From the NCBI GenBank assembly GCA_963758525.1, contig CAVWVQ010000002.1, forward strand, positions 392,350 to 456,349: a DNA stretch of 64,000 nucleotides, written 5' to 3'. This DNA is from an uncultured Phycisphaerales bacterium (lineage in GTDB: Bacteria > Planctomycetota > Phycisphaerae > Tepidisphaerales > Tepidisphaeraceae). Shown piece by piece: positions 48,777 to 64,000 of the stretch. The stretch's first letter is position 1; each line of letters starts with the position of its first letter. The notes beneath the pieces are model-generated. The model saw nothing but the letters and a program-made list of their open reading frames with translations. It was not told the DNA's origin and did not search any database. The translations under genes and the position numbers were made by a program.

Positions 48777-49291
48777 ATGACTCCTCTGCAAGATCATCTT
48801 CGCATGGCATATGCAAAGAGTCCCGGCCACAGATTCGTAGTTGAGCATTGGTCTATCGATAGGCCTGGATTTTCTAACCATTTGAGTAGGGTAATGACTT
48901 GTCGCCGCTCTTCAAACGCTGACGCAACAACAATGGTCGTTGCGAATGTCCATTCCTCTGATTTTCGCCGCCGTCAATGCGATAACGCTCCGCGGTTCCG
49001 GCAGAAAGCTTTTTCATTCGTTGGTCTGGGTGGTCAAACGCTGTCGGTTGAAAGAGTAAAATTTGACGCGGGATTGGCCAGGTTCGATAGTCTTGTGACT
49101 GGTCCGTCACCGGCGGCTAGCTACTGGGTTACACGGGGAAGCACATTGAAGAGGGGTGCCCGCTTCGATTGTGTTGCCGCCTGCCGGGGTTGCAGCTTAA
49201 TAACGAGGGATCGAACAACATCGACTTTCTCCGCGGCGCATCGGACCGCACGACCGCTGAGGTAAGTCAATTCATTGAAACCAGGGGCCGA

Positions 49292-52200
49292 ATGTCCAAT
49301 CTGAAGAAAATGCAAGTGCGTCGGAATATCGGTCAAGGTCAATTCGGGCGGTTGGTCCGGTGCCTGTTCGCTGAAGTTGAGAAACTGGAATCGCGAAGGA
49401 TGTTGTCGCACAGCGGCGACTCCCCATACGATCCACCAACCGATGCGGGGCATGTCGTGGTGGATACCGGAAGTGGGCTGGACACCGGTTGCACCTTCGC
49501 ATCAGGCGGGCCGCTTACGATCGATCTGCCGATCAGCCGATGCATCGACCCAACCAAGTTGGCAGCGCACATGTCGCTCCCGACGACCCTCACTCTGACC
49601 CTTCCTGCATATGACGTTGACTACGACGGAGATCCTGACGATCCGAGCACGCCCCCGGAACGTGACGAGGTCTATTTCGTCGGCAAGGATGGCGTGCGGG
49701 ACGATCTGGGGACCCTCGAAGGCGCCAACGATATCTGGCAGAACAACACGTTCCAGGTTCCGATCGGCGACGTCGATTTCGGAACCGAGGACGCGTCCGG
49801 CAACGTCACGCCGGGCAACAACCAGATCGTCGTGAATATCGACACCGCCTCCCCGCCCGGGGCGGACAATTGGTGTACCGCCGTCGACTGGGTCGCGCTG
49901 CAGGTGCCAGTGGTTGATCCGGTATTGCTGGTGCACGGAATATTGAGCAGTCCCGCGACCTGGGGTTCCAACGGCTCGGGATTTGATTGGGAAGACGGTT
50001 TATCCAGTTGGGGCATCCCGTGGGAAGCCATCGACTTGAGCGGCTACAACAAGGCGCTGAGCAGCATCGACAGCGATGCCGCCCAAATCGCCTCGACCGT
50101 CGAGACGATGAAGCAGACATTTGGCGTAGACAAGGTCAACATCGTTGCCCATAGCAAAGGCGGTCTCGATTCCCGGCAATTCGCCGAGACATCCGATTCG
50201 CTCGATACGCTGATCCAGCTCGATACCCCCAATGCCGGCAGTCCGTTGGCCACTGCCGCACTCGCGGGCCTGGCGCGACTTTCACTCCCCGCCGCCGTGA
50301 TCGGCACCCTGCTTGCTCCAGCCGGTCTGCAATTGACCCCCGAGTTCATGGCCGTTTACAACGAGTTTCACCCGCTCAACCCGGACGTGAATTACTATTC
50401 GATCGCCGGCAACTATACGTTCACGGGATTCGGCTCCGCCCTGCTCAACACCGCTTTCCAGAGCTTCTATGGCGGACCCAACAGCCTGATCGTCGCCAAC
50501 TCCTCTGTCTATTCACTCTCCCCCGGCATCACCTCGCTGCCCGCGTGGGACAGCAGCGGGAGCGATCATTCCGCCTGGCACACCGGTATCACCCATTCGC
50601 AGGGAATCTTCGACGAAGTAGCGCCATACTTGCTGTCAACTTCGACCGCCTCCCCAAATGTGCAGACCGTGACACCGTCGACGTCGTCACCCGCAGCCAA
50701 CCCGATTGCGCTCGCTCCCGAGGGCGGTGCCGTCGCCGCCGGACAGACCCAAACCCAGCAGTTCACGATCGACGCGTCGGCAACCGGGGCCACGGCCTTT
50801 ACCATTGACTACGACTCCGGCCTGCTCGGATACACGCTCACATCCCCGTCGGGTGTCACCATTGACCCGACCTATGTCGCGGCGAACCCCGCCGTCGCCG
50901 GATATGCCGAAGGCGATGACGCCACCCAAACCGGAAATAAACAGGACACCTACGTCATCGCGAACGCTCAGGCGGGAGTCTGGACCGCCAACGTGACCGG
51001 AACGGCGGTAACAGAGCCCTCGGGGTCCGAGCCGTACGTCGTCTCCGCTATCGAGCAGGCCAGCGGGATCATCATGCCCGTCTCCTCGGATGCCACCGCA
51101 TACACCCTCGGCCAAAGCGTCACACTAACGGCAAGTCCGACCCTCAACGGCACGCCAATCACCGGCGCCACTGTCGACGCGACCATCCTGCTGCCCGACC
51201 AGACCACCCAAAACGTCCCCCTCGTCGACAACGGAGCCGGCGTCTACAGCGGAACGTTTACCGCGACCCAGACTGGCGCTTACGCGATGACTGTCACCGG
51301 CCAAGCGGGCGGGTCGACGGCATTCTCGCGCCTCGGCGTCGCGGTCGCCGCCGTGTCGTCCGGCACCGCCACGCTCAGTGGGTCCTACAGCACCACGGCA
51401 ACCGACGCCAACGGTGACGGACTTTACGACACATTAACCGCATCCATCGGAGTGTCGGTCGGATCAGCGGGAAATTATCGCCTCACCGGGTGCATCACGG
51501 ATGCGGGAGGAGCGGTCATCGATACGCAAACCAGGGACATCGCTCTGCCCGCGGGAACGTCCTCCGTTGATTTGGATTTCGACGGATCGAAGATCTACCA
51601 GCATGGAGTTGACGGGCCCTACGACCTTACTCAGGTGTCGCTCAAGGAGGACAACGACGGGTTGCTCACTCCCGCGGCGGAGGCGCCACAAGCTGCCGCT
51701 ACTTCCGCCTATCAATACACCGATTTCCAACATGCTCCAGTCGTCGCCGAAGCCGGCGGAAGCAGCCACACCGCCGACACCGATGGCAACGGAGAATTCG
51801 ACACGTTGACTGTCTCGCTTCCGGTGACAGTATCTACCCCCGGCGATTATCAGTGGAGCGGCGAGCTGCTCGACGCCACCGGGCGTGTCGCCGCCCGAAT
51901 CAGTAACTCAGGAACGCTCGCCAGCGGCGCAAATAGTCTCGATTTCCCGTTCGACGGACGCGAGATCTGGAGCAATGGATACGATGGGCCGTATCATGTC
52001 GGTAACATCGCGATCGTCGGCCCCTCCTCCGAGGCAATCGATACCACCTCCTACACGACCCCCGCCTACACTGCGCCTCAATTCGAACATGGCGCGAATC
52101 TGGTCGTCACCAATGTTCAGTTCGGCGGACCCCTTGTTCCCGGGCAGAGCCAATCTGTGACCTATACGGTTGAAAACGTTGGGCCGACGACCACTGAATC

Positions 52201-53647
52201 CGCGACGTGGCACGACGGAATTTACCTTTCCCCCTCCGGCATGTTCAGTTCCACTGACGTCTTGCTGACCGACCAAACGCACTCGGGCACGCTGCAGCCC
52301 GGCGCTTCGTATACCGCGACGGCGACTTTCACCACCCCCAGCGGCGCGACATCAACGGACGCGGTGGTCGTGTTCACCGATTCGGCCAACCAGATCCGGG
52401 AAGGCGCCGCCGGCGAGGCCGACAACTTCGGTTCGTCCCTCGCTCTTTCTTTTACACTCGCTGCCGGCTCGCCCGCGACACCGATCGTCAATGGCCAGGC
52501 CGCGGCGGTTCCGGTTGCGGCAAGCGACCTTGGCGCCGAGGGCACCGCGACCACCTTCACCATCACCGATACCGCAAATCAACCCCTGACGGTTGGATCG
52601 TTGCAACTCCCGGCCGGGTTCGATCTGACGGCAGCGCCGCCGGCTTCAATTGCCCCGGGGCAAGCAGCCACGTTCGCGGTAGCCGTCTCTGCATCGGCGC
52701 CAGTCGAGGCTCTCTCCGGACAGTTGACGATCCCCGTCAGCGGTCAAACCATCTCCTTCCCGCTGAGCGGCCGCGTCTGGCAGGCGATTCCTGTTCCGGC
52801 GAAGAAGAAAGTCGTGTTTACGGACGCTTCCGGGCGGCAGGTCACCGCCCTGCTCGCCGGCCCCGGACGCGCCGAACTCCGCTTCGCCACCGCCTTCACG
52901 CTGCCTGCGGGAAAAACGACAGTTTACGCCGCCCATCAGAACCCCTCAGAGTTGCTTCTGAACGGCAGTACCGGCGCTTCGTCCATTTCTCTCGCCGTTC
53001 CGGGCCGGGCACAGACTGCCGTCGGCCTGATCACGATCAACGGGTCTGCGCGGTCCGTCGATGCGCCGTCCGCGACTATTGGCGGTCTCATCGTCACCGG
53101 CTCAGTCGCTGCGCTCACGGTCGGCAACGCCGGGGGCGGCGGGACGTGGTATGTTGGCGGCGCGATCGGCAAAATTCGTGCGGCGTCATTTGCCTCGGGA
53201 GCGATAGTGGACGTCACCGGCTCCATAGGTTCCATTATCACAACGGGTGACTTCGACGGTTCCCTGGCGGCGGCGGCCATCGGAACACTGTCCGTCGGAG
53301 GCGGCGCGAGCGGCACCAGGATCTATGCCGGAACGAACTTCGGAACCGACGCCGCGCTCGGCGGAACCGGGTCGGCCGCTGACACCTTCTATGCCGGCAC
53401 GATCTCGTCCGTCAAAATACACGGTGCAGTGAATGGATCGATCTTCGCCGCAGGCTTGAATCCAGTAAACGGACGCTACTTCGACGGCGACGATCTGCTG
53501 ATCGCCGGCGGCAGGATCAGATCGTTCACCGCCGCCTCGCTCAGCGCTGACAGCCGTGTACTAGCTGACATTTTGCCTGCGAAGGTGAAGCTCGGCCGAC
53601 TCACCGTCCTGCCAGCGGCGGACCCGAGGTTCAGTCTCAATTCTTGA
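49292..53647 (+). CDS. Large extracellular lipase-like multidomain protein with EKLESRRML motif
   Basis: VLLVHG, AHSKGG, TPNAGS hydrolase; D.NGDG.YD repeats; CARDB-like and Ig-like domains; shared C-terminal domain. Confidence 0.88.
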   Translation: MSNLKKMQVRRNIGQGQFGRLVRCLFAEVEKLESRRMLSHSGDSPYDPPTDAGHVVVDTGSGLDTGCTFASGGPLTIDLPISRCIDPTKLAAHMSLPTTLTLTLPAYDVDYDGDPDDPSTPPERDEVYFVGKDGVRDDLGTLEGANDIWQNNTFQVPIGDVDFGTEDASGNVTPGNNQIVVNIDTASPPGADNWCTAVDWVALQVPVVDPVLLVHGILSSPATWGSNGSGFDWEDGLSSWGIPWEAIDLSGYNKALSSIDSDAAQIASTVETMKQTFGVDKVNIVAHSKGGLDSRQFAETSDSLDTLIQLDTPNAGSPLATAALAGLARLSLPAAVIGTLLAPAGLQLTPEFMAVYNEFHPLNPDVNYYSIAGNYTFTGFGSALLNTAFQSFYGGPNSLIVANSSVYSLSPGITSLPAWDSSGSDHSAWHTGITHSQGIFDEVAPYLLSTSTASPNVQTVTPSTSSPAANPIALAPEGGAVAAGQTQTQQFTIDASATGATAFTIDYDSGLLGYTLTSPSGVTIDPTYVAANPAVAGYAEGDDATQTGNKQDTYVIANAQAGVWTANVTGTAVTEPSGSEPYVVSAIEQASGIIMPVSSDATAYTLGQSVTLTASPTLNGTPITGATVDATILLPDQTTQNVPLVDNGAGVYSGTFTATQTGAYAMTVTGQAGGSTAFSRLGVAVAAVSSGTATLSGSYSTTATDANGDGLYDTLTASIGVSVGSAGNYRLTGCITDAGGAVIDTQTRDIALPAGTSSVDLDFDGSKIYQHGVDGPYDLTQVSLKEDNDGLLTPAAEAPQAAATSAYQYTDFQHAPVVAEAGGSSHTADTDGNGEFDTLTVSLPVTVSTPGDYQWSGELLDATGRVAARISNSGTLASGANSLDFPFDGREIWSNGYDGPYHVGNIAIVGPSSEAIDTTSYTTPAYTAPQFEHGANLVVTNVQFGGPLVPGQSQSVTYTVENVGPTTTESATWHDGIYLSPSGMFSSTDVLLTDQTHSGTLQPGASYTATATFTTPSGATSTDAVVVFTDSANQIREGAAGEADNFGSSLALSFTLAAGSPATPIVNGQAAAVPVAASDLGAEGTATTFTITDTANQPLTVGSLQLPAGFDLTAAPPASIAPGQAATFAVAVSASAPVEALSGQLTIPVSGQTISFPLSGRVWQAIPVPAKKKVVFTDASGRQVTALLAGPGRAELRFATAFTLPAGKTTVYAAHQNPSELLLNGSTGASSISLAVPGRAQTAVGLITINGSARSVDAPSATIGGLIVTGSVAALTVGNAGGGGTWYVGGAIGKIRAASFASGAIVDVTGSIGSIITTGDFDGSLAAAAIGTLSVGGGASGTRIYAGTNFGTDAALGGTGSAADTFYAGTISSVKIHGAVNGSIFAAGLNPVNGRYFDGDDLLIAGGRIRSFTAASLSADSRVLADILPAKVKLGRLTVLPAADPRFSLNS

Positions 53648-54282: not shown

Positions 54283-55392
54283 ATGATACCACGTTACGTC
54301 ATTTCGTTTCTCTGCACGCTGCTGGTTTTTTCCGCCATCGGCAGCACGCTCCGTTTCGCCACGCGCTCGCAGGTGCGGGCCGGGACGTCGATGCGGGAGA
54401 CTTGGCAGGCCGACTTCACGCTGGATACCTACGCCGGAAGCGATCGGTTCTACCGTGTCGATGACGATATCAAGACTGCTCTGGAGAACGGCATTACCTT
54501 CGCAGGTTCCGGGCCGATATGCATCGTCTCGACCAAAGTCCAAATTACGCCAAGAGATGTCACGTGGGAGGAAAACAAGACGCACTGCACCGCAACCGGC
54601 GCGGGCATGATCGCGCACGTGACCTGGGAGACGCGCGCCGATGCACCCGACGGCGCCGGCGGCTCGATTCATATCGAGTTTCCCAGAATTCGCGGTCTGA
54701 AAGGCTACATCCCCGACTTCCGAAACGGCAGCTTCCAGAAGACCCCTTCCGGCCAATGGGTCTTCCGCGAAATCACCGCATATCGCACCTCAGCATCGCT
54801 GGCACTGGGGCGACTTGGGCTGGCGGTCGCCGCGGCGCTGCCGCTGACCATCGTCTTCGAAGCCGCCCGCTCGCTCATCGTGTTGAACTGGCGCAAGCGT
54901 GGGCGCCTTAAATCACTGGCTTCCCATGCGTCGTCGGAACTGCCCCGCATCTTCCTGCCCAGTCCCGTCGCCGAATGGAACAGTTGGAACCTGACGCTCC
55001 TGATCTTCGGCTTTGTAGGCTGTATCCTCGCGGGCATGAGCGTTTCCGAAGGCTTCATGAGCACGAGATTCTGGTGGGCGATTGTCATCATGCAATTCTG
55101 CGGGGTGCTGATTGCGCTGCTCGTGACGTACTGCGCCCGGATTGCTGGGGTGAGTGTGCGCGTGGACGACGACACCATCTCTCATGCCAAAGGCCGCGGC
55201 GAGCCGCGTTGGGTGACGGCCCGATGGGCCGACCTGCGCGGCATCGTAAAAAAGTCGCAAACCTACCGCGGCTCCCGCAGAGAGTGGCTGGAAGTGGAAT
55301 TCCCCGATGGCAAAAAACGAGTCATCCGCGACGCCAAGGCTCGCGAAGCCGTGCTCAGCTTGTATGCACAGTTCCACCGGCCGGCAAATTGA
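54283..55392 (+). CDS. Hypothetical membrane protein with PH-like C-terminus
   Basis: About four hydrophobic segments; SVRVDDDTISH...W.DL C-terminal pattern. Confidence 0.7.
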   Translation: MIPRYVISFLCTLLVFSAIGSTLRFATRSQVRAGTSMRETWQADFTLDTYAGSDRFYRVDDDIKTALENGITFAGSGPICIVSTKVQITPRDVTWEENKTHCTATGAGMIAHVTWETRADAPDGAGGSIHIEFPRIRGLKGYIPDFRNGSFQKTPSGQWVFREITAYRTSASLALGRLGLAVAAALPLTIVFEAARSLIVLNWRKRGRLKSLASHASSELPRIFLPSPVAEWNSWNLTLLIFGFVGCILAGMSVSEGFMSTRFWWAIVIMQFCGVLIALLVTYCARIAGVSVRVDDDTISHAKGRGEPRWVTARWADLRGIVKKSQTYRGSRREWLEVEFPDGKKRVIRDAKAREAVLSLYAQFHRPAN

Positions 55393-55637: not shown

Positions 55638-55706
55638 ACTCTCATCGCCGGCACAACGGATCATGCTATCCGCCACCCGCGGCCGCGCCAGCGCCAGATC
55701 TCTGCA

Positions 55707-55810
55707 GAAGTTGAAGGTCGCCGGCTTGCCCTCGTCACGGCGTTTGCGCCGTTCGCGGTGAACCGACCGAACTCCATCACCAGTGTTTTCTGGGTCTGCG
55801 ATTCCAGGTG
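55707..55810 (-). pseudogene. Group II intron reverse transcriptase remnant
   Basis: HLESQTQKTLVMEFGRFTA / RRKRRDEGKPATFNF across one frameshift resembles the RT motif LELHPEKTRLIEFGRFA..RRGEGKPETFNF. Confidence 0.7.
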
Positions 55811-55929
55811 AACGCAACGGGGGACACCCGTACCTATTTTGATCGGCCCGCACCCGTTGCCTTCCTCCCCGGTGCGGCTGCGCAAGGCACTTCGGTCGGT
55901 AGAGAGAATTTGGATCTGATGACCTGCTG

Positions 55930-56086
55930 CCCCTTTTAGCCGGTTCGCTTGCGAGCCGTTCCCTTTGGAATTCGAAGAAACCGGCACGCAAGCAAGCCGG
56001 CTAAAAGGGGAAAAGGAACGCCACCCGCTGCGAAGGAATCTTCGTCACCTGCGAACCTCCAGCGAAGCCGACCGCGCGCTCCGCCG
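55930..56086 (+). repeat. Hairpin + Mrr-fragment unit, copy 1
   Basis: CCCCTTTTAGCCGG...CCGGCTAAAAGGGG hairpin then CGCCACCCGCTGCGAAGGAATCTTCGTCACC; duplicated at 57825. Confidence 0.85.
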
Positions 56087-56445
56087 CGATTGAACCGAGT
56101 TTGCGTACCTCCGCCGCTCGGCCGAGACAGGCCAGCACCCGCGCTGGAGCCTTCACTCTCAGACCACGCCAAATTAGCCTACTTGGTCCTTGGGAGTTGT
56201 ACTGTCGTGCCAGACAATCGGTTTGTTTTGTACTGTCGCGGTATCAGACAACTTGCCAGTGCCGAGAATCAAACTGAACCTTTCCAACTCGTCTTGGCTG
56301 CCGAATGGGCTCAATCGGAACGGCACTTGCAGGCAAGCGGCGCGGCCGGTGCAACGTTGGAACGAGATAGGAATCACACCATAGTTCGACACCCGACAGG
56401 CGGCACTCGGCCACAAACAATTTTTCATTTAGGAGAAGTAACCAT

Positions 56446-57660
56446 ATGTTCACCCCCCATCATCACAAATTAGTGGTTGCGTTAGCGGCCCTCGGATTGA
56501 TCTCGCTGCCGATTGCGGTGTTTGCAGACAACAATCCGCAAAACGGACAGCACCAGAATTCATCTCAACAAGACAATCGGGAGAACCGGCAGTCACAAGA
56601 TGACCAGCAAAATACCTCCCAAGACTCTCAAGACCGTACCGCTGGGTCAAAGAGCGGCTCGGTGCTGGTGTACCGGGAAGTAAACGTCGATGGTACGCAG
56701 CATTTCCGTGTCCGCCTGAAGACATCAGGCGGTTCGGTGGAGACCGTTGATCTGGGCCCTTCAAACCAGAACCAGGATCTCATCAACAATATCGAACAGG
56801 GAGACCATATCACCGTTCAGGGGCAGAGCCAGAAAATCAACGGAAAGCAGGTCTTCGTTGCCAATCAGGCCCGCGTGGAAGGCAAAACCTACGAGATCGC
56901 CCAGGCGAACGGAGAAAATGGGCCCGAGCACAAACAGGGCGAGTCTGACAGCGAACAGGCTAACAATCCGCAGAACTCCAACAACCCGGGCACCGTGGTG
57001 CTGCTCGATGAACGGTTTGTCTTCCTCGACGAGGGCAACCTCAACCGGCACCTCATCCTGGCCAAGGAGAATCTGAGGATGGGTGACACGCAGGCCGCTG
57101 CCGGCGAGTTGCGGGTGGCCGCACAGCAACTTGACCTCTACGCCAATGCGACGCAGGGCCGAGCGCAGACAAGCCAATCCGTGAAATCCAGCCAGCAGGA
57201 GCTGGACCGGCTGGCCGACCAGATCAGCAAGGATCAGGGAAAGGTGCAACCTGAAGAAATAGCCCAGGCGGCAGCCCGCGCTCAACTCGCGATCGCAAAG
57301 TTCTACGATGATCGGATTGAGAGCGCCAAAGGCGGCAATAAGTCCCTCGAGGCCGGCTATGCACTGCAGGCAGCCGCGACGCACACCCGTGAGGCTTTGA
57401 TGTGGTCCGGCGAGAATGTTCCCGCCGATGCAGCACATTGCGTCCATCAAGCGATGAAGACTGCCGACGAGCTGATTTCCGGCAACCCGCAGCCCAAGCA
57501 TGATGCGACACAAGTCGCGCAGGCTCTCAGTCGACAGATTGACCAGATCGATCAGCAGTTGGGCCAATCCGAGGCGCAGCCCGCCGGTGCCCGGCTTCCG
57601 GCCGAGAGAAACGAGCATCAATCTCAACAGCAGCAACAACAGTCGCGAGCTGATCAGTAA
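56446..57660 (+). CDS. Secreted Gln/Asn-rich protein with OB-fold-like and helical domains
   Basis: AGGAG RBS, signal peptide, VDLGP...GDHITVQG...VFVA OB-like pattern. Confidence 0.75.
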   Translation: MFTPHHHKLVVALAALGLISLPIAVFADNNPQNGQHQNSSQQDNRENRQSQDDQQNTSQDSQDRTAGSKSGSVLVYREVNVDGTQHFRVRLKTSGGSVETVDLGPSNQNQDLINNIEQGDHITVQGQSQKINGKQVFVANQARVEGKTYEIAQANGENGPEHKQGESDSEQANNPQNSNNPGTVVLLDERFVFLDEGNLNRHLILAKENLRMGDTQAAAGELRVAAQQLDLYANATQGRAQTSQSVKSSQQELDRLADQISKDQGKVQPEEIAQAAARAQLAIAKFYDDRIESAKGGNKSLEAGYALQAAATHTREALMWSGENVPADAAHCVHQAMKTADELISGNPQPKHDATQVAQALSRQIDQIDQQLGQSEAQPAGARLPAERNEHQSQQQQQQSRADQ

Positions 57661-57824
57661 GGTCGCGGGTTGCACGATTCATCCGCCCCGATGGGCGAAT
57701 GAAGCCAGCGTATCGGGCGTAATTCGAACTGTGGTTCGCGGGACGAGGAATTATTCCTCGTCCCGCTGCGTCACTATGGAAACACTGAGTAAGAAAGGGG
57801 GTCATCATCAGGTGACATGCTGCA

Positions 57825-58142
57825 CCCTTTAGCCGGTCGCTTGCGAGCCGTGCCCTTTGGAATTCGAGCAAAACCGGCTCGCGGGCAAGCCGGCTAAAAG
57901 GGGAAAAGGAACGCCACCCGCTGCGAAGGAATCTTCGTCACCTTCGGAACCCTCAGCGAAGCCGCCCGCGCCTTCGCCGCCGGCAAGCCGATCCGGCTCA
58001 TCGATGGGCCCGACGCTCCTCTCGACGTTCGCCACGAACACCGGTCACGCCGATTTGCCGCGCTTGCAGCGTTCCGATGGAACTCCGTACCGCTCGACGC
58101 GGACCGAACACGGGGCGGCCCTTCTGGGGTTGCCGGAACTAG
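57825..58142 (+). repeat. Hairpin + Mrr/zinc-finger fragment unit, copy 2 (pseudogene)
   Basis: Same hairpin; encodes ATRCEGIFVT..KPIRLIDG and PICRACSVPMELRTARRGPNTGRPFWGCRN* with an indel. Confidence 0.85.
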
Positions 58143-58180
58143 TTGCCTGGTGTGCAGTGAGGCGGTTATTCTCGAAAGCC

Positions 58181-58873
58181 ATGGGGATGCACCCGAGCCG
58201 GATAGGTTGGTGGTTTGTATTTATCGCCTCGCTGGTGGTCAATATTGGATTAGGCTATCTGTGGTCACGCAGTCGAAAACCGGTCGAAACTCCTATACGC
58301 ACAGATGTCCCCGCACTCGATGAAACGCTCTACCAGTTTGCCGTTGACCGATTCGACCGCCTCCCGCTGAGCCAATTCCAGGTTGAACGCCCTATGTTTG
58401 GCGACGATATGGCGCACGCCGTGGCAACCTATTTCGGTCATTCGGTCATGGATGACCGCGCAATCCCTGGCGAAACAACGATCGGCTTGGACCGGCGGTT
58501 GGACGGACTCATCGCGTTGCACCCGCGGAGCGTAATCGTCTGGAGCGGGATGAGCGATTTGATCGCCGGACGCGCACGGCGCAGGTCGCCGCCACGCTCT
58601 GCAATGTGGTCAATCGCCTCCAGGCTGCAGGCGTGCGGGTAACACTGGTAGGCCCCCTCCATGTCCTGCCCTCCGCATCCAGCAGCGCGATCAATTCAGA
58701 AATCGACAAGCTGGATGACGCGCTCCGAGTTGCGGCACACGCAAGAGCCGCCCGTTGGATTGATTTGCGCAGTTGCTGATGATCCAAAAATGCGAACGGC
58801 GGATGGCAGAAATCTGAGTAGAATAGGATTATCGCAGGTTGCGGCGCACCTCGTGCTGCAATTTAACAATTGA
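58181..58873 (+). pseudogene. SGNH/GDSL hydrolase-like, degenerate catalytic residues, frameshifted
   Basis: TM anchor; FGDD, DRAIPGETT, GMSD, ADGRNLS correspond to SGNH blocks I, II, III, V. Confidence 0.6.
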
Positions 58874-58881
58874 TCCGGTGG

Positions 58882-58998
58882 CTAGCCTCCCTTTCTTTTC
58901 GATTCGATTTTCTTCCGGCGCTTCGATTCCGTCTGGTACCCGATCGGCGGCTTTGACTTGGTCTTCGGCTCGGCCATCAGCGACCGGATGGCGTTGAT
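58882..58998 (-). pseudogene. ORF6N-family protein C-terminal remnant
   Basis: INAIRSLMAEPKTKSKPPIGY matches the AIRxLM..P....IG(F/Y) tail typical of ORF6N proteins. Confidence 0.55.
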
Positions 58999-59116
58999 TC
59001 AAAGGCGATCGGTAGTGAAGTTGCATTCGTCACCGACACAAAAGAACCTGCCGGGAGTCGGCGATTGATGCCGATTTTGAGATGTGTGCCGGCCGACGGT
59101 ATGATTCGGGAGGCAT

Positions 59117-59497
59117 ATGAGTACACAAACAGTTTCTCCCCCGCTGGCATGGTATGCCCCGACGCTGGTGGCGGCATCGACGCTGCTCCAGTTGCCCGAC
59201 AACTGGGACCAGCACGGCGCAATGCGCGTGAAACCCGCAATTGTGCAGGCGGCGATGACGCTGCTGAACGCCATCATGCTGGATGACACGCCAGCGCCAT
59301 CGGTGGTGCCAACGGTGCGGGGGGGAGTTCAATTGGAATGGCACACGCGGGGAATCGATCTGGAGATTGAGTTTCTCTCTCCCAGCCATGTCCAGGGATT
59401 ATTTGACGATCAGCGGGAAGGCATTTCCTGGGAGAAAGATCTGGCTTCTGACATCGCATCTCTCCATGACGCTATTGCAAGTCTTTCGAGGCAATAG
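59117..59497 (+). CDS. Hypothetical protein with NWD..GA / P...GGVQLEW motif (antitoxin-like)
   Basis: GGAGG RBS; LPDNWDQHGA, PSVVPTVRGGVQLEWH. Confidence 0.75.
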   Translation: MSTQTVSPPLAWYAPTLVAASTLLQLPDNWDQHGAMRVKPAIVQAAMTLLNAIMLDDTPAPSVVPTVRGGVQLEWHTRGIDLEIEFLSPSHVQGLFDDQREGISWEKDLASDIASLHDAIASLSRQ

Positions 59498-59524
59498 CGC
59501 GCGCCGGGAGCGGAGTTCACACAC

Positions 59525-59920
59525 ATGCCCGGTCCTTCTATGGTGGATGATCTCACGATAGCCGACACCGCCGCACTATGGCGGCGCGTGCATCCAGCGT
59601 GGATCGTGAGAGACGACAACTCGGCAGGGATGCGATTGTCATCGGCAGCGTTTGATGACAGCGCCGACGGAAGCCCGCTTTCGGTTTTGCTGGCAGACGT
59701 GATCGCCCTGACACAACGAACCGCGCAGGATGTGCTAGCCGGTTATGAGGGCTGCAAACTCGCGCCCATTACCGCAGGCGCTGCCCGATCTTTCGCACAG
59801 GGAATTGCGCGGACACCCGAGCCGGATGAACCAGCCCACGCTTCGGTGTTTGGGCCGAAGACAAAATCCAATAAGCGGGGGATGGCGAAAACGGCAACAT
59901 GGGTGATCCCGCCGGGCTGA
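59525..59920 (+). CDS. Hypothetical protein, possible ADP-ribosyltransferase/RES-like fold
   Basis: LWRRVH, SSAAF, PLSV, PAHASV pattern; GGAG RBS. Confidence 0.65.
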   Translation: MPGPSMVDDLTIADTAALWRRVHPAWIVRDDNSAGMRLSSAAFDDSADGSPLSVLLADVIALTQRTAQDVLAGYEGCKLAPITAGAARSFAQGIARTPEPDEPAHASVFGPKTKSNKRGMAKTATWVIPPG

Positions 59921-59944
59921 CCAGGCCAACCGGAGAGCCTTAGG

Positions 59945-60360
59945 ATGGGGTACGAGACGGCCATTGACATGTACGGCGTGCGTGTCCGACCCGACAAGTT
60001 CGCCGACGTATCTGCGGCGATCGCGGCCGCCGAACGCGGTGGCGGAGGACATCATTGGATGGTGGGATTGCTGAAAATGGGTAGCCAAGGCGCTCTCTCG
60101 TGGAACGACGTACGCGTAGGCAAATGGAAGTCGCACGAAGAATTTATCCGCGAAATCGCATCTTGGTGTTCACGAGGCTGGGTGTCGTTTCGGAGTCGCG
60201 AGGGAGACGGGGCGGCGTGGGCTTATGAGTTCGACGGAACGGCGGATATCGGGAGTGTTCAGCGCGGCGTGTAGCCGCTATCAAGGCTGCGGCGACGCGC
60301 CGGAGGCGAGCGGCAAGGGTCAGCGCTGCACCGCCCACGAAGCGACGGAGTGGGCAGTGA
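59945..60360 (+). CDS. Hypothetical protein (called ORF ends 60274; probable indel near 60238 extends it to 60360)
   Basis: Globular Trp-rich ORF; alternative frame continues NGGYRECSARRVAAIK... Confidence 0.5.
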
Positions 60361-60480
60361 TGCGAACGCGACCCCGGCATACCGGTTAACTGAACACTTG
60401 AACAAATTGCATTGGCTGATGATCGCCTTTTCTCACACTTCGTGTATCCGGCGAGCATGCTCGCTGTTTTCCCAGTCTGA

Positions 60481-60789
60481 TTGGTCGACGCCCGCGCCAC
60501 CCGCTGCGAGGGAATCTTCGTCACCTGCGGAACCTTCAGCGAAGCCGCCCGGACCTTCGCCGCCCGCAAGCCGATCCGGCTCATCGACGGGCCGACGCTC
60601 CTCTACATGTTCGCCACGATGAATCCGCTGGTTACCGCCGTCAGCAGTTCATGCCAGGTTTCTCTGAGGCAGCGCCCCGTCTACTGCTCACCTGTTCTAC
60701 TGCTCCACTGTCTCGCGCAGCGTACCGGTCGGCCGTTCTGGGGTTGCCGGAACTATCCGCGGTGTCGGGAAATTGTGAACGGCGTTTGA
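60481..60789 (+). pseudogene. 5'-truncated Mrr-type restriction endonuclease + topoisomerase-type C4 zinc finger, copy 3
   Basis: GIFVTCGTFSEAARTFA..KPIRLIDG..L (Mrr C-terminus) and FWGCRNYPRC; catalytic part absent. Confidence 0.8.
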
Positions 60790-60867
60790 TGCATGCGATG
60801 TGCCGTCCGAGGGAAGCTCGATCTGTCCCGCGCCGATCAGTTCGCCTCAATGCGCTGCGGCCCGGCG

Positions 60868-61275
60868 GACCAGCGGCCATCTCTATCAGGGCCGCTACAA
60901 AAGCTTTGTAGTGCAGGAAGATGGGCATTTGCTGACACTGCTGCGTTATGTGGAAGCCAATCCATTGCGGGCGAAGATGGTGGAGCGGGCGCAGGACTGG
61001 CACTGGTCGAGCCTGGGCTGCCAGAAAGAGCTGGCGAGACAACTGCTCGACGACTGGCCGATCGACCGCCCGCGGAACTGGACGGCGCTGGTGAACGAGC
61101 CGATGGATCCGGCCGCCGTGAAACGGGTGGCACTTAGCTTCGAGCGTGGCCGGCCGCTGGGAAGCGATCCCTGGACCCTGAAAATGGCGGGCCGGATGCG
61201 GCTGCAGTACACTCTGAATCCGAGAGGCAGGCCGAAATTGCCGGAAAAAGGCAAATAAAAACGGTGGATGTCACC
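60868..61275 (+). mobile_element. 5'-truncated RAYT/Y1 transposase with right-end motif
   Basis: GHLYQGRYKSF, RYVEANPLRA, DWHWSS, GRPLGS..W, RGRPK; HuH half missing; ends AAAACGGTGGATGTCACC. Confidence 0.85.
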
Positions 61276-61986
61276 TTAACAGCTTCTTACCAAAAAGCAT
61301 TCGACCAAGCGCCGTCCAAGCTACTGTGGGCAGGACTAGCGAAGCTGGCTGGTGGCGTTGTCTACAAGGGTCTGCAGACTGTCTCTGGGCTTCGCCTGAA
61401 TGATGAGGCATGGCTCGCTGCCACATTGCGCGGTCATAATTCACTGGCGCGAGTGATAATCCAGTCCACCTCCGGATACCAATCTCGGGAGGCAGCTTTT
61501 CAAAATGAGTGGTTTCTGGAACGGGAGTTCCTCACAATGCACAAGGCGATTTTTGAGGATTTGGCATGGCAGCATGAAGCTTACCTTCAAGAAGGTTTGC
61601 CCGCTCTAACCTTGCTCAATCTTGCTGAACCAGGTGCGCTGCCTTCTAAGCTCGTACTCGCTTGGAAGCAGATCGATTCTGGGCTCGCACCCTATGTCAA
61701 TCTCGGAAATGAAACCCTATTACGACGCGAACAGTCTGATATACTGCAGAGGTATTACGATGAGATCGGCGAAGTCCCCTTGGGACTCGCCCTGAGCCTT
61801 CAGGCAAAACCTCCATTGCCTGGAGGCAGATCCTTTGAAGATGTAGAGGGCCCAGGTGGAAACATTGCCAACTTCGGCGATAGATGGAACTGGATTAAAT
61901 CGGATATGCTGCCCGCTTGGGAGGCCATGAGTGCTTCGGCTCGGCAGGTGTTAGTTGACAGTCCCCTCGGTTCGTTCGTGCAATAA
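61264..61986 (+). CDS. DUF2515-like domain, probable orphan toxin C-terminal fragment
   Basis: WAGLA, IFEDLAWQHEAY, GN..LLRREQ..ILQ..Y, GNIANF.DRW; lower GC; ORF start lies inside the RAYT end motif. Confidence 0.55.
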   Translation: MDVTLTASYQKAFDQAPSKLLWAGLAKLAGGVVYKGLQTVSGLRLNDEAWLAATLRGHNSLARVIIQSTSGYQSREAAFQNEWFLEREFLTMHKAIFEDLAWQHEAYLQEGLPALTLLNLAEPGALPSKLVLAWKQIDSGLAPYVNLGNETLLRREQSDILQRYYDEIGEVPLGLALSLQAKPPLPGGRSFEDVEGPGGNIANFGDRWNWIKSDMLPAWEAMSASARQVLVDSPLGSFVQ

Positions 61987-61994
61987 AGTGGATT

Positions 61995-62552
61995 ATGATG
62001 GCGATTTTAACAAAGTGGTCCTTGGGCTCTATCCTTGTGGCGATAGTTGTTTCCTCCCTCGGATTCTGGAGGGCCAAAGTGGGTCATCCTCAACTCGACT
62101 ATGATTTCTCGGTTTCCCGCGATATTTCGAAAGTAAGCTGGCCCGAGACGAAAACGGGAGATTGGTTTGCACTGACCGGAACCTACGATCTCAGAGTTCG
62201 CTTCCCTGGCGGCGCAAGCTTCGCCGAAACGGTTCGGGATGTCTACATTTCCCGGACCGCCTCCAATGTCACCGAATTTGAGGCATGCAGTGAACCGATG
62301 TCGATCGGTGGGGCTTACAGCAGGGCCAAGGAGATCGCTTCAGAATGGCGGCTCGACACCCCACGTTTCGAACATTTTCAATATGAGGCTCGTCGAGGCA
62401 GCCTGAGCACCTATGCGGCCGAGGGAGGCAAAGACCCGGTGTTGACATTAGAGCTAATCCCAAGTCTCGCAGGCGATGATCGGCCTTGGTGCCTCAAAGT
62501 CAGCGCTTGGTGGCAAGGTGACGCGATCTATCCGCCGGAGGCGAAACAATGA
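61995..62552 (+). CDS. Hypothetical exported protein (candidate immunity protein)
   Basis: Starts within a few nt of the upstream stop; N-terminal TM/signal. Confidence 0.6.
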   Translation: MMAILTKWSLGSILVAIVVSSLGFWRAKVGHPQLDYDFSVSRDISKVSWPETKTGDWFALTGTYDLRVRFPGGASFAETVRDVYISRTASNVTEFEACSEPMSIGGAYSRAKEIASEWRLDTPRFEHFQYEARRGSLSTYAAEGGKDPVLTLELIPSLAGDDRPWCLKVSAWWQGDAIYPPEAKQ

Positions 62553-62941
62553 AAACCCGGGCTCCCGTCAGTGTGGACGGCTTGCCGGCATATCATGGGA
62601 AAGATGCCCCAGAATGTCAGCACCTTGAATATGAGAAAGTACGTTGCCGGCCTCGCCGGATCAGTCGGTTTGCGGTTGTCTGCTTTTTGCTCGGAATCGC
62701 TTGCGGTCCTTTCGTCCATTCTCGAATCATTCCCCGGGTGCTGATATCACATGGCGCCAGCGCACGTCAGGTCGTTACACTATGCGTTGGAATGTATGTG
62801 TTTGTGTCGATGCTGTCGGCTGTTGCGGCGCGGCGCGTCGCTGATTCAAATGGAGTACTTGTGGGCCAGTGGTTCGCGATCGCGACTATTGCTCTTTGCG
62901 CTGTATGGATTGGCCTTGAGTGGTGGGTTTCGACGATGTGA
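62549..62941 (+). CDS. Hypothetical membrane protein (DUF4190-like)
   Basis: LEYE..SRFAVVCFLLGI, three hydrophobic segments; ATGA overlap. Confidence 0.55.
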   Translation: MKTRAPVSVDGLPAYHGKDAPECQHLEYEKVRCRPRRISRFAVVCFLLGIACGPFVHSRIIPRVLISHGASARQVVTLCVGMYVFVSMLSAVAARRVADSNGVLVGQWFAIATIALCAVWIGLEWWVSTM

Positions 62942-63060
62942 CGGGAACGCCGTGGGCGCGGTATAAAGAAATGCGGAGGGAGGTAGCCCCGCGCTATAAA
63001 AAAAGTCAGCCGACGATTTTGGGGCCCGACCGGTTGCGGAACATCCGGGTGAGGAAAGGG

Positions 63061-63830
63061 GGTCATCAGCCTTTCCCGTCGATTGAGTAGATGGTATGCT
63101 GGTGGAATGGCCCGTATACCCCGTTTTTCCCCCGGCGGGCTGGCGTATCACGTGATGAACCGCACGCCGGGGAAGCTCAAGCTGTTCGAGGATGATGGAG
63201 ACTATCAGGCGTTTGAGAAGGTGCTGATCGAGGCGATCGATCTGCATCGGGGAATATGCCTCTGCGCCTATTGTCTGATGCCCAACCACTTTCATCTGCT
63301 CCTCTATCCCAAGACCGATGGCCAATTGTCCCGCTTCATGCAGTGGCTCACCATGACACCACGCCGCCCGCTGGCATGCCCATCGCCACAGCGTGGGGCG
63401 CGGGCATCTGTACCAGGGCCGCTTCCGGAGCTTCCCGATTCAGCAGGACGGGCATTTCCTGAGTGTCTGCCGGTATGTGGAGCGTAATGCGCTGCGGGCC
63501 AATCTGGTGGCCAAGGCGCAGGACTGGCGATGGGGTTCGCTCTGGGCGAGGGATGACCGCAGCAGCGGGATCGCCCGGTTTCTGGCTCCCTGGCCGGTGG
63601 AGATGCCAGGGAGATGGGTGACTCTGGTCAATCGGGCGGAAAGCGCGGAGGAGCTAGCCGCGTTGCGCCGCGCCGTTGCTCGCGGCCGTCCCTACGGCGA
63701 TGATCGCTGGTCGCAACGGACGGCCAAGGCGCTGGGCACTGAAAGCTCGTTGCGCCCGATCGGCCGGCCGAAGAAATCGAAGCCGCGGAGGAAAGATTGA
63801 CGGATAATAGGCGAAGATAGGCTGATGACC
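63061..63830 (+). mobile_element. RAYT/Y1 HuH transposase element bounded by 12-bp inverted repeats
   Basis: GGTCATCAGCCT (63061-63072) / AGGCTGATGACC (63819-63830). Confidence 0.8.
63107..63800 (+). CDS. REP-associated tyrosine transposase-like (frameshift near 63360)
   Basis: YHVMNR, AYCLMPNHFHL (HuH), GHLYQGRFRSF, RYVERN, DWRWGS, GRP. Confidence 0.9.
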
Positions 63831-64000
63831 GTCAGGCCGGTCAGGTCAGCTTCTTGGATGCGAAGGGAGTCCGGCCCACCTTACCCCCGGCCCACCTGCC
63901 CCCCCTTCCTCACCCCCCTTCCCACCCCGCTGTGCTTTGCGAAGCGAACAGGACAGACCCTAACTGTCTTCCTTGCTTCTGTCGTTCTCCTTTAAAACGC

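Follow-up and report, generated by a model that had tools for sequence, protein, structure and literature searches.

Here, we report an analysis of a mosaic of genes and gene scraps at the end of a 64,000-nt stretch of DNA (the window) from an uncultured Phycisphaerales bacterium (genome G000, contig C2, positions 392350 to 456349). The end of the window is the end of the contig, and the assembly comprises six contigs (completeness, 91%; contamination, 6%) with some residual indels. Two RAYT-like Y1 (HUH) elements, families A and B, have terminal inverted repeats (TIRs) that make up the genuine recurring motifs in the last ~8.3 kb, and their pieces lie between remnants of unrelated genes. The element pieces and candidate ends, together with the two genes that follow the family B piece, are as follows.

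55916 to 55924, plus strand: 9-mer CTGATGACC, a match to the inner part of the family A right TIR, at chance level by itself and inside a duplicated unit
57790 to 57809, plus strand: solo outer part of the left TIR of family A
60414 to 60437, minus strand: degenerate family A TIR (20/24 positions), 58 nt ahead of the third of three Mrr gene scraps
60863 to 61288, plus strand: family B Y1 element, 3' half only, including the right TIR (61263 to 61288), 97% identical to other copies
61289 to 61986, plus strand: DUF2515 domain fused to the family B TIR tip
61995 to 62552, plus strand: partner gene behind DUF2515
63048 to 63830, plus strand: family A Y1 element (left TIR, 63048 to 63071; gene, 63107 to 63800; right TIR shortened to 63820 to 63830)
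63857 to 63879, plus strand: putative degenerate end belonging to an additional TIR subtype (16/20 by eye)

Both elements are ~0.78 kb long with TIRs of ~24 nt (family A TIR, GGTGAGGAAAGGGGGTCATCAGCC), and a family C was defined from other copies in the genome. Ends of family B occurred 31 times in the genome (none for four shuffled motifs) and A-like ends 19 times (0 to 2 for shuffled motifs). A blast census gave 49 instances, including 20 B and 9 A copies or pieces with identities of up to 99%. The Y1 protein matched PF01797 and, below the cut-off, NF047646; the HUH pair (H59/H61) was invariant, Y121 was near-invariant, and the Y-x-x-x-NP motif was conserved. Its structural model (predicted local distance difference test, 87) had Escherichia coli TnpA-REP (4ER8) as the nearest fold. 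Homologs were present in 28 of the 41 genomes searched, G000 included, and TIRs flanked 32/38 full-length Y1 genes at loci fetched from relatives versus 3/300 controls. Miniature elements with two facing family A TIRs ~13 nt apart were seen on contig C3 of G000 (2067288 to 2067348, and at 4210272), whole Y1 elements stood head-to-tail 0.8 to 0.9 kb apart in three relatives (L055, L056, and L057), and a Y1-like domain lay inside a long DinG-type helicase frame (C3, 1312105 to 1312314; helicase label by eye from sequence).

The 15-mer GAAAGGGGGTCATCA, which an earlier reading made from the letters alone (the sequence-only reading) had found to be identical at 57793 to 57807 and 63054 to 63068, occurred six times in the genome versus 0.011 expected. 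A TIR matrix trained on relatives' sequences only, then used on the ~8.3-kb region, scored 17.4 at 63051, 16.5 at 57790, 12.5 at 63941, 10.5 at 61264, 9.0 at 60415, and 7.0 at 55812. Against an expectation of 0.56 per 8.3 kb, five sites scored ≥12; two of them (55974 and 62147) had no tie to any element. A score of 7.0 is chance level (~5 such sites per 8.3 kb). Strong TIR sites in the window are those at 57790, 63048, and 61263; those at 60414 and 63820 to 63830 are weaker. The matrix detected no TIR at the junctions at 56087, 58141, the ORF6N tail (listed below), and 60862.

The observation behind the sequence-only reading was confirmed in part; two of the motifs that it named are at chance level, and about half of the junctions in the window lack a TIR. 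The 9-mer at 55916, proposed as a recurring terminal repeat, occurred 126 times in the genome versus 115 expected; the motif at 55819 to 55840 scored 7.0; and that at ~63951 to 63962 lies inside a different repeat. For the motif at ~63864 to 63881, the resemblance of 63857 to 63879 to a further TIR subtype was retained, and a motif search allowing three mismatches did not recover it. Motifs said to precede both copies of a hairpin-Mrr unit were borne out at the second copy, where the solo TIR lies 130 nt past a stop codon and is joined to the unit, and not at the first, where the 9-mer lies inside it. The half RAYT at 60863 is real and is assigned to the second family, with its own TIR, and the motif noted at the start of a toxin-like open reading frame (ORF) is the right TIR of that family. 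The RAYT at 63107, described as intact, changes frame near 63358 and has a right TIR of only 11 nt; the frame change may be an assembly error instead of a mutation, given indels at 58576 and 58766.

Copies in G000 were clustered (27 neighbor pairs within 6 kb versus 2.4 by random placement) and were in the same orientation in 25/27 pairs; the genome had no usable GC skew for a replication-strand test of orientation. Genome-wide, 22 of the 50 outermost ends were informative in having an outward flank with a homolog elsewhere; in 10 of these, the homology ended ≤6 nt from the TIR tip, versus 3/168 shifted controls, in agreement with the earlier claim that HUH element ends mark breakpoints. The neighbors cut included an intron reverse transcriptase (RT), an integron integrase, insertion sequence (IS) pieces, a galactosidase, another RAYT, and Rhs cores. 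In 8/8 tests on seven elements, the cut sequence was not continued by the opposite flank, and the flanks failing to rejoin included pairs that were 95 to 100% identical and therefore young. No consistent target duplication was found among 11 two-ended copies, whereas an IS5-like control in the same genome had a TA-centered duplication in 9/9 copies and flanks that rejoined where it had inserted in a B copy. On the outer side of the end, a further copy of the tip was seen at 8/28 ends of two-ended elements in G000 (DDE ends, 0/26) and at 16/64 ends in relatives (controls, 3/164); the copied units mostly started at the tip and ran inward for a variable 12 to 234 nt. In two cases, the right flank was a repeat of DNA upstream of the element. 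Because target duplication is lacking, flanks never rejoin, and tips are tandemly recopied, the elements are not plain insertions.

The module behind the family B tip resembles the end of a larger toxin gene. Elsewhere, DUF2515 is the C-terminal domain of long modular proteins with Rhs core, WXG100, or Ig-like N termini: 27 longer relatives were found, with the domain at or near the C terminus in alignments, and among six carriers scanned, one had an Rhs core and one a WXG100 domain. The window copy lacks ~40 conserved N-terminal residues and is likely a toxin tip. The partner gene, conserved behind DUF2515 in a relative (G076; 27% over 142 aa; E value, 1e-6), is likely its immunity gene. This layout, a putative headless toxin C terminus ahead of a putative immunity gene as in orphan polymorphic toxin arrays, was seen for the one window module and for Rhs loci, with no parent gene in the window.

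Among 11 relatives (79 Y1 rows, 72 after merging split matches of single genes), 9/72 Y1 matches were ≤3 kb from an Rhs core versus 0.5 expected; the nine were spread over five genomes, and 9/9 were co-oriented with the core. Arrays in which the stop codon of an immunity gene is followed by a TIR, then by a Y1 gene or nothing, a second TIR, and headless Rhs were found in G002, G063, G016, G001, and G000, and the array L062 (G063) had solo TIRs and no Y1 gene. Truncated Rhs modules in relatives often begin at a TIR. A TIR-like site was present at the start of 10/24 Rhs frames versus 26/170 long frames at the same loci (a Y1 gene was the reason for choosing 8 of the 11 loci, and some of the loci had served to train the matrix) and of 37/2078 long frames in G000. 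Starts of Rhs frames varied from 2 to 707 codons ahead of the core; in the array L061, almost without TIRs, they were fixed at 308 to 328 codons. In relatives, TIRs punctuate toxin-immunity arrays. A role of the TIR as supplier of a start codon was considered and rejected as a general rule (a GTG/ATG frame is open into window cargo, but other cargo is in another frame).

The elements are of the TIRtron/TIRYT kind, which is probably the same as TnpA-Y1 subclass 2.1 and RAYT group 1. Like described TIRtrons (Di Nocera 2013, PMC3733652), they have long TIRs at a set distance on either side of a Y1 HUH gene, solo TIRs elsewhere, and a Y-x-x-x-NP motif. Their G-rich core may correspond to GGGGWSAS, which is present in the majority of described TIRs; family A has GGGGTCAT (7/8), family B has GGTGACAT, and the relatives' matrix centers on GGGAC/GGGTC. 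A C-terminal extension is known for subclass 2.1, with a helix-turn-helix (HTH) in subgroup 2.1.2; described TIRYTs of subclass 2.1 have an HTH tail (Quentin 2018, PMC6006769), whereas the tail here is predicted to be helical (~90 aa) and Pfam finds no HTH in it. REPtrons (RAYT groups 2/3) have GTAG-tagged repetitive extragenic palindromic (REP) hairpins around a single-copy gene, in contrast to the TIRs and many near-identical copies found here, and IS200/IS605 elements differ in having Y-x-x-x-Q, subterminal hairpins, and rejoining flanks. In the parts of the literature covered, no RAYT-like group is larger than subclass 2.1, for which there is no tested substrate and whose mobility is described as not shown, and group 1 has the highest duplication rate among RAYTs (6.2%; Bertels 2017, PMC5581495). 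The features described for TIRYTs in those parts do not include flanks that fail to rejoin, duplicated tips, or Rhs arrays, and a literature search found no paper on mobility of the elements, such junction patterns, or a link to Rhs; the supplements of PMC3733652 and PMC6006769 may list multicopy cases. The element type is a known one, behaving in a manner without description in the literature covered.

We assign a probability of roughly 0.55 to the locus being a pile-up around multicopy TIR-ended Y1 transposons, with pieces stacked by one-ended HUH joining at tips plus homologous recombination. The transposase would nick the TIR tip and join it singly to whatever DNA end is near. According to the available parts of PMC8266576, TnpA-REP enzymes of groups 2/3 nick single-stranded DNA in vitro, the tyrosine holding the 5' end and an outside 3'-OH resolving it; by analogy, the tip here would be a 5' end held as a 5'-phosphotyrosine and resolved by a free 3'-OH. 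A near DNA end would lead to tip duplication and a far one to deletion, duplication, or capture. Homologous recombination, acting on a further element copy or on an Rhs core, would seal the second side, and selection would keep the immunity genes. One-ended joining would explain why the copies lack a target duplication, have unrelated flanks, and lie in direct orientation.

Several observations weigh against this account. In the relatives, 63/72 Y1 genes are away from Rhs cores, and neighbor co-orientation is weak (8 same versus 4 opposite); in G000, the 27 pairs are interdependent, with pieces of a single broken element among them. The DDE control was also enriched near Rhs cores (4/148 among the matches listed, with 33 control rows outside, versus 0.9 expected; Fisher P value for Y1 versus these DDE matches, 0.011 at 3 kb and 0.10 at 10 kb). 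The window itself has no Rhs core, about half of its junctions have no TIR, and no empty-site allele, circle, or junction-crossing read was found. Any insertion would be expected to leave breakpoints at its ends, and flanks could be parted by later deletions as well. Insertion followed by host deletion may have produced the pattern.

That last process belongs to an explanation that we consider unlikely, an ordinary graveyard of IS elements: whole insertion into tolerant, horizontally acquired DNA, with host deletions and replication slippage cutting neighbors and copying tips and with co-orientation stemming from replication-strand bias or selection on transcription. Enrichment of DDE elements both near Rhs cores and inside Y1 clusters, G-rich microhomology at some tip duplications, the many junctions without TIRs, and the copies in G000 that also cut IS elements, an intron, and a galactosidase gene all fit it. 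The failure of flanks to rejoin in every test, even young ones, and the absence of tip copies at DDE ends do not.

The repeated array layout in five genomes, the solo-TIR array, and the excess of Rhs frames starting at a TIR-like site over long frames in G000 are as expected of a dedicated capture system, a sharpened form of the idea in the sequence-only reading, in which the TIR is a programmed joining site that adds toxin-tip and immunity modules and solo TIRs are served in trans. Such a system is improbable, as the start points are scattered, most elements lie elsewhere, and other Rhs arrays (L061) have a fixed start without TIRs; in addition, the choice of loci and the training of the matrix bear on the excess. 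Repeat misassembly near the contig end, to which the repeat at the end of the window, the residual indels, and the contamination would point, is very improbable, as many interior loci have the same layout, as do other species whose TIR sequences differ, and short-read contigs match pieces of unique cargo at 99 to 100%.

With integrons, the locus shares an array of accessory genes, and with one-ended transposition of IS91/ISCR elements, a fixed element end and a variable far end; IS91 has a Y2 enzyme and two unlike ends. The locus is not an integron. Cargo in the window is cut inside genes at variable points, without a recombination site of its own, and does not form whole-gene cassettes with fixed ends; no integrase was present among the window ORFs scanned, and the 53- to 64-kb part of the window had no match to the attC-like repeats of the genome's own integron. 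The integron-like array run by one resident RAYT that the sequence-only reading proposed is not supported: besides these points, the elements are multicopy and mobile, at least two TIR families are mixed in the window, and the chance-level motifs and the junctions without a TIR speak against it. The true integron of G000 (L013; C1, 198000 to 212000) has intI (TIGR02249, above the cut-off), ~10 attC-like repeats, and a group II intron in two copies; at a junction there that repeats the intI 5' region lies a family A element.

Other likenesses are found in the available parts of three reports. Arrays of IS26 translocatable units (Harmer 2014, PMC4196232) share direct copies alternating with unique segments and clustering by existing copies, but IS26 is a DDE enzyme, whereas the enzyme here is HUH and several TIR families are mixed; the IS26-type direct orientation holds for 25/27 pairs in G000 and for only 8/12 in relatives. 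Orphan effector-immunity arrays of Rhs and the type VI secretion system (Kirchberger 2017, PMC5361080) share headless toxin tips and immunity genes behind a full gene; they arise by homology-facilitated illegitimate recombination with no enzyme known for the joint, whereas the joint here is often a TIR tip. TnpA-REP/prochlorosin clusters (bioRxiv 10.1101/2020.03.09.984088) share subclass 2.1 genes or fragments amid a diversifying gene family, with other cargo, and a note added to that preprint states no strong evidence for or against causation. Growth of orphan toxin-immunity arrays is now ascribed to rare illegitimate recombination; if tips join free ends without a target sequence, they would provide an enzyme for it. 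Our tentative extension is that TIR-ended Y1 elements are a true, unrecognized IS family whose tips ligate any free end and supply the enzyme for the illegitimate joint of toxin arrays, solo TIRs allowing capture in trans. Near-identical copies, defined ends, and junction scars in G000 make mobility and chemistry directly testable.

The other features of the region are as follows.

55707 to 55791, minus strand: RT gene remnant from a group II intron, 75% identical over 85 nt to an ltrA gene (E value, 6e-4)
55930 to 56010, no strand: 81-nt palindrome, copy 1 (six related copies in the genome, including both in the window)
56019 to 56087, plus strand: Mrr scrap 1, 89% identical to Mrr scrap 3
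56446 to 57660, plus strand: 404-aa ORF, apparently whole, of no family, with a weak homolog in 1/5 relatives
57820 to 57903, no strand: palindrome, copy 2
57912 to 58141, plus strand: Mrr scrap 2, 91% identical to Mrr scrap 3 over 126 nt
58181 to 58779, plus strand: GDSL/SGNH-like gene split over two frames (extra bases at 58576 and 58766 in short-read contigs)
58923 to 58998, minus strand: remnant of the gene for an ORF6N-domain protein, covering only the C-terminal tail and 88% identical to another remnant in the genome
59117 to 59920, plus strand: two-gene pair like the candidate defense system PDC-M32A/B
60495 to 60789, plus strand: Mrr scrap 3, the end of Mrr_cat plus a Zn ribbon
63916 to 63994, plus strand: first part of an unrelated repeat of the genome, lying where the contig ends

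The RT scrap, the three Mrr scraps, and the half RAYT named by the sequence-only reading were confirmed. The RT scrap matched ltrA, as listed, and was not picked up by hidden Markov model searches of the genome; the three Mrr scraps have a common start point (56019, 57912, and 60495), and Pfam Mrr_cat matched the third alone. The hairpin-Mrr unit is duplicated as reported (55914 to 56087 versus 57807 to 57980; 89%). For the ORF6N scrap, only the C-terminal tail is present, the remnant that it matches having a reading frame that corresponds to an ORF6N-domain protein, and the ORF6N domain itself (PF10543) had zero matches in the whole genome. The 404-aa product is probably secreted, judging from its N terminus. 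In the PDC-M32-like pair, the first gene matched profile positions 267 to 340 of 375 only, and the gene at 59525 fell in unnamed clusters only in the ESM Atlas. Rfam gave no match. Near-identical short-read contigs differed from the window at the two indels in the GDSL/SGNH-like gene; contigs of X1 to X4 covered pieces only, and none spanned any window junction. The gene at 54283 had no counterpart in 5/5 relatives searched.

One half copy of the palindrome family adjoins a truncated Y1 gene from a different subfamily, and at C3:1697124 an Mrr scrap follows a Y1 gene of that subfamily. The repeat at 63916 belongs to a ~1-kb region without a clear gene (also L003, 3400 to 5700, and L005, 4500 to 7140), of which there are dozens of partial copies, often directly ahead of Y1 fragments. 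Upstream of the mosaic, 49169 to 53647 encodes a 1,492-aa secreted-type alpha/beta hydrolase with CARDB and DUF4785 domains. In the synteny comparison, this gene alone has an ortholog (G003; 75% DNA identity), which sits in another context amid unrelated neighbors.

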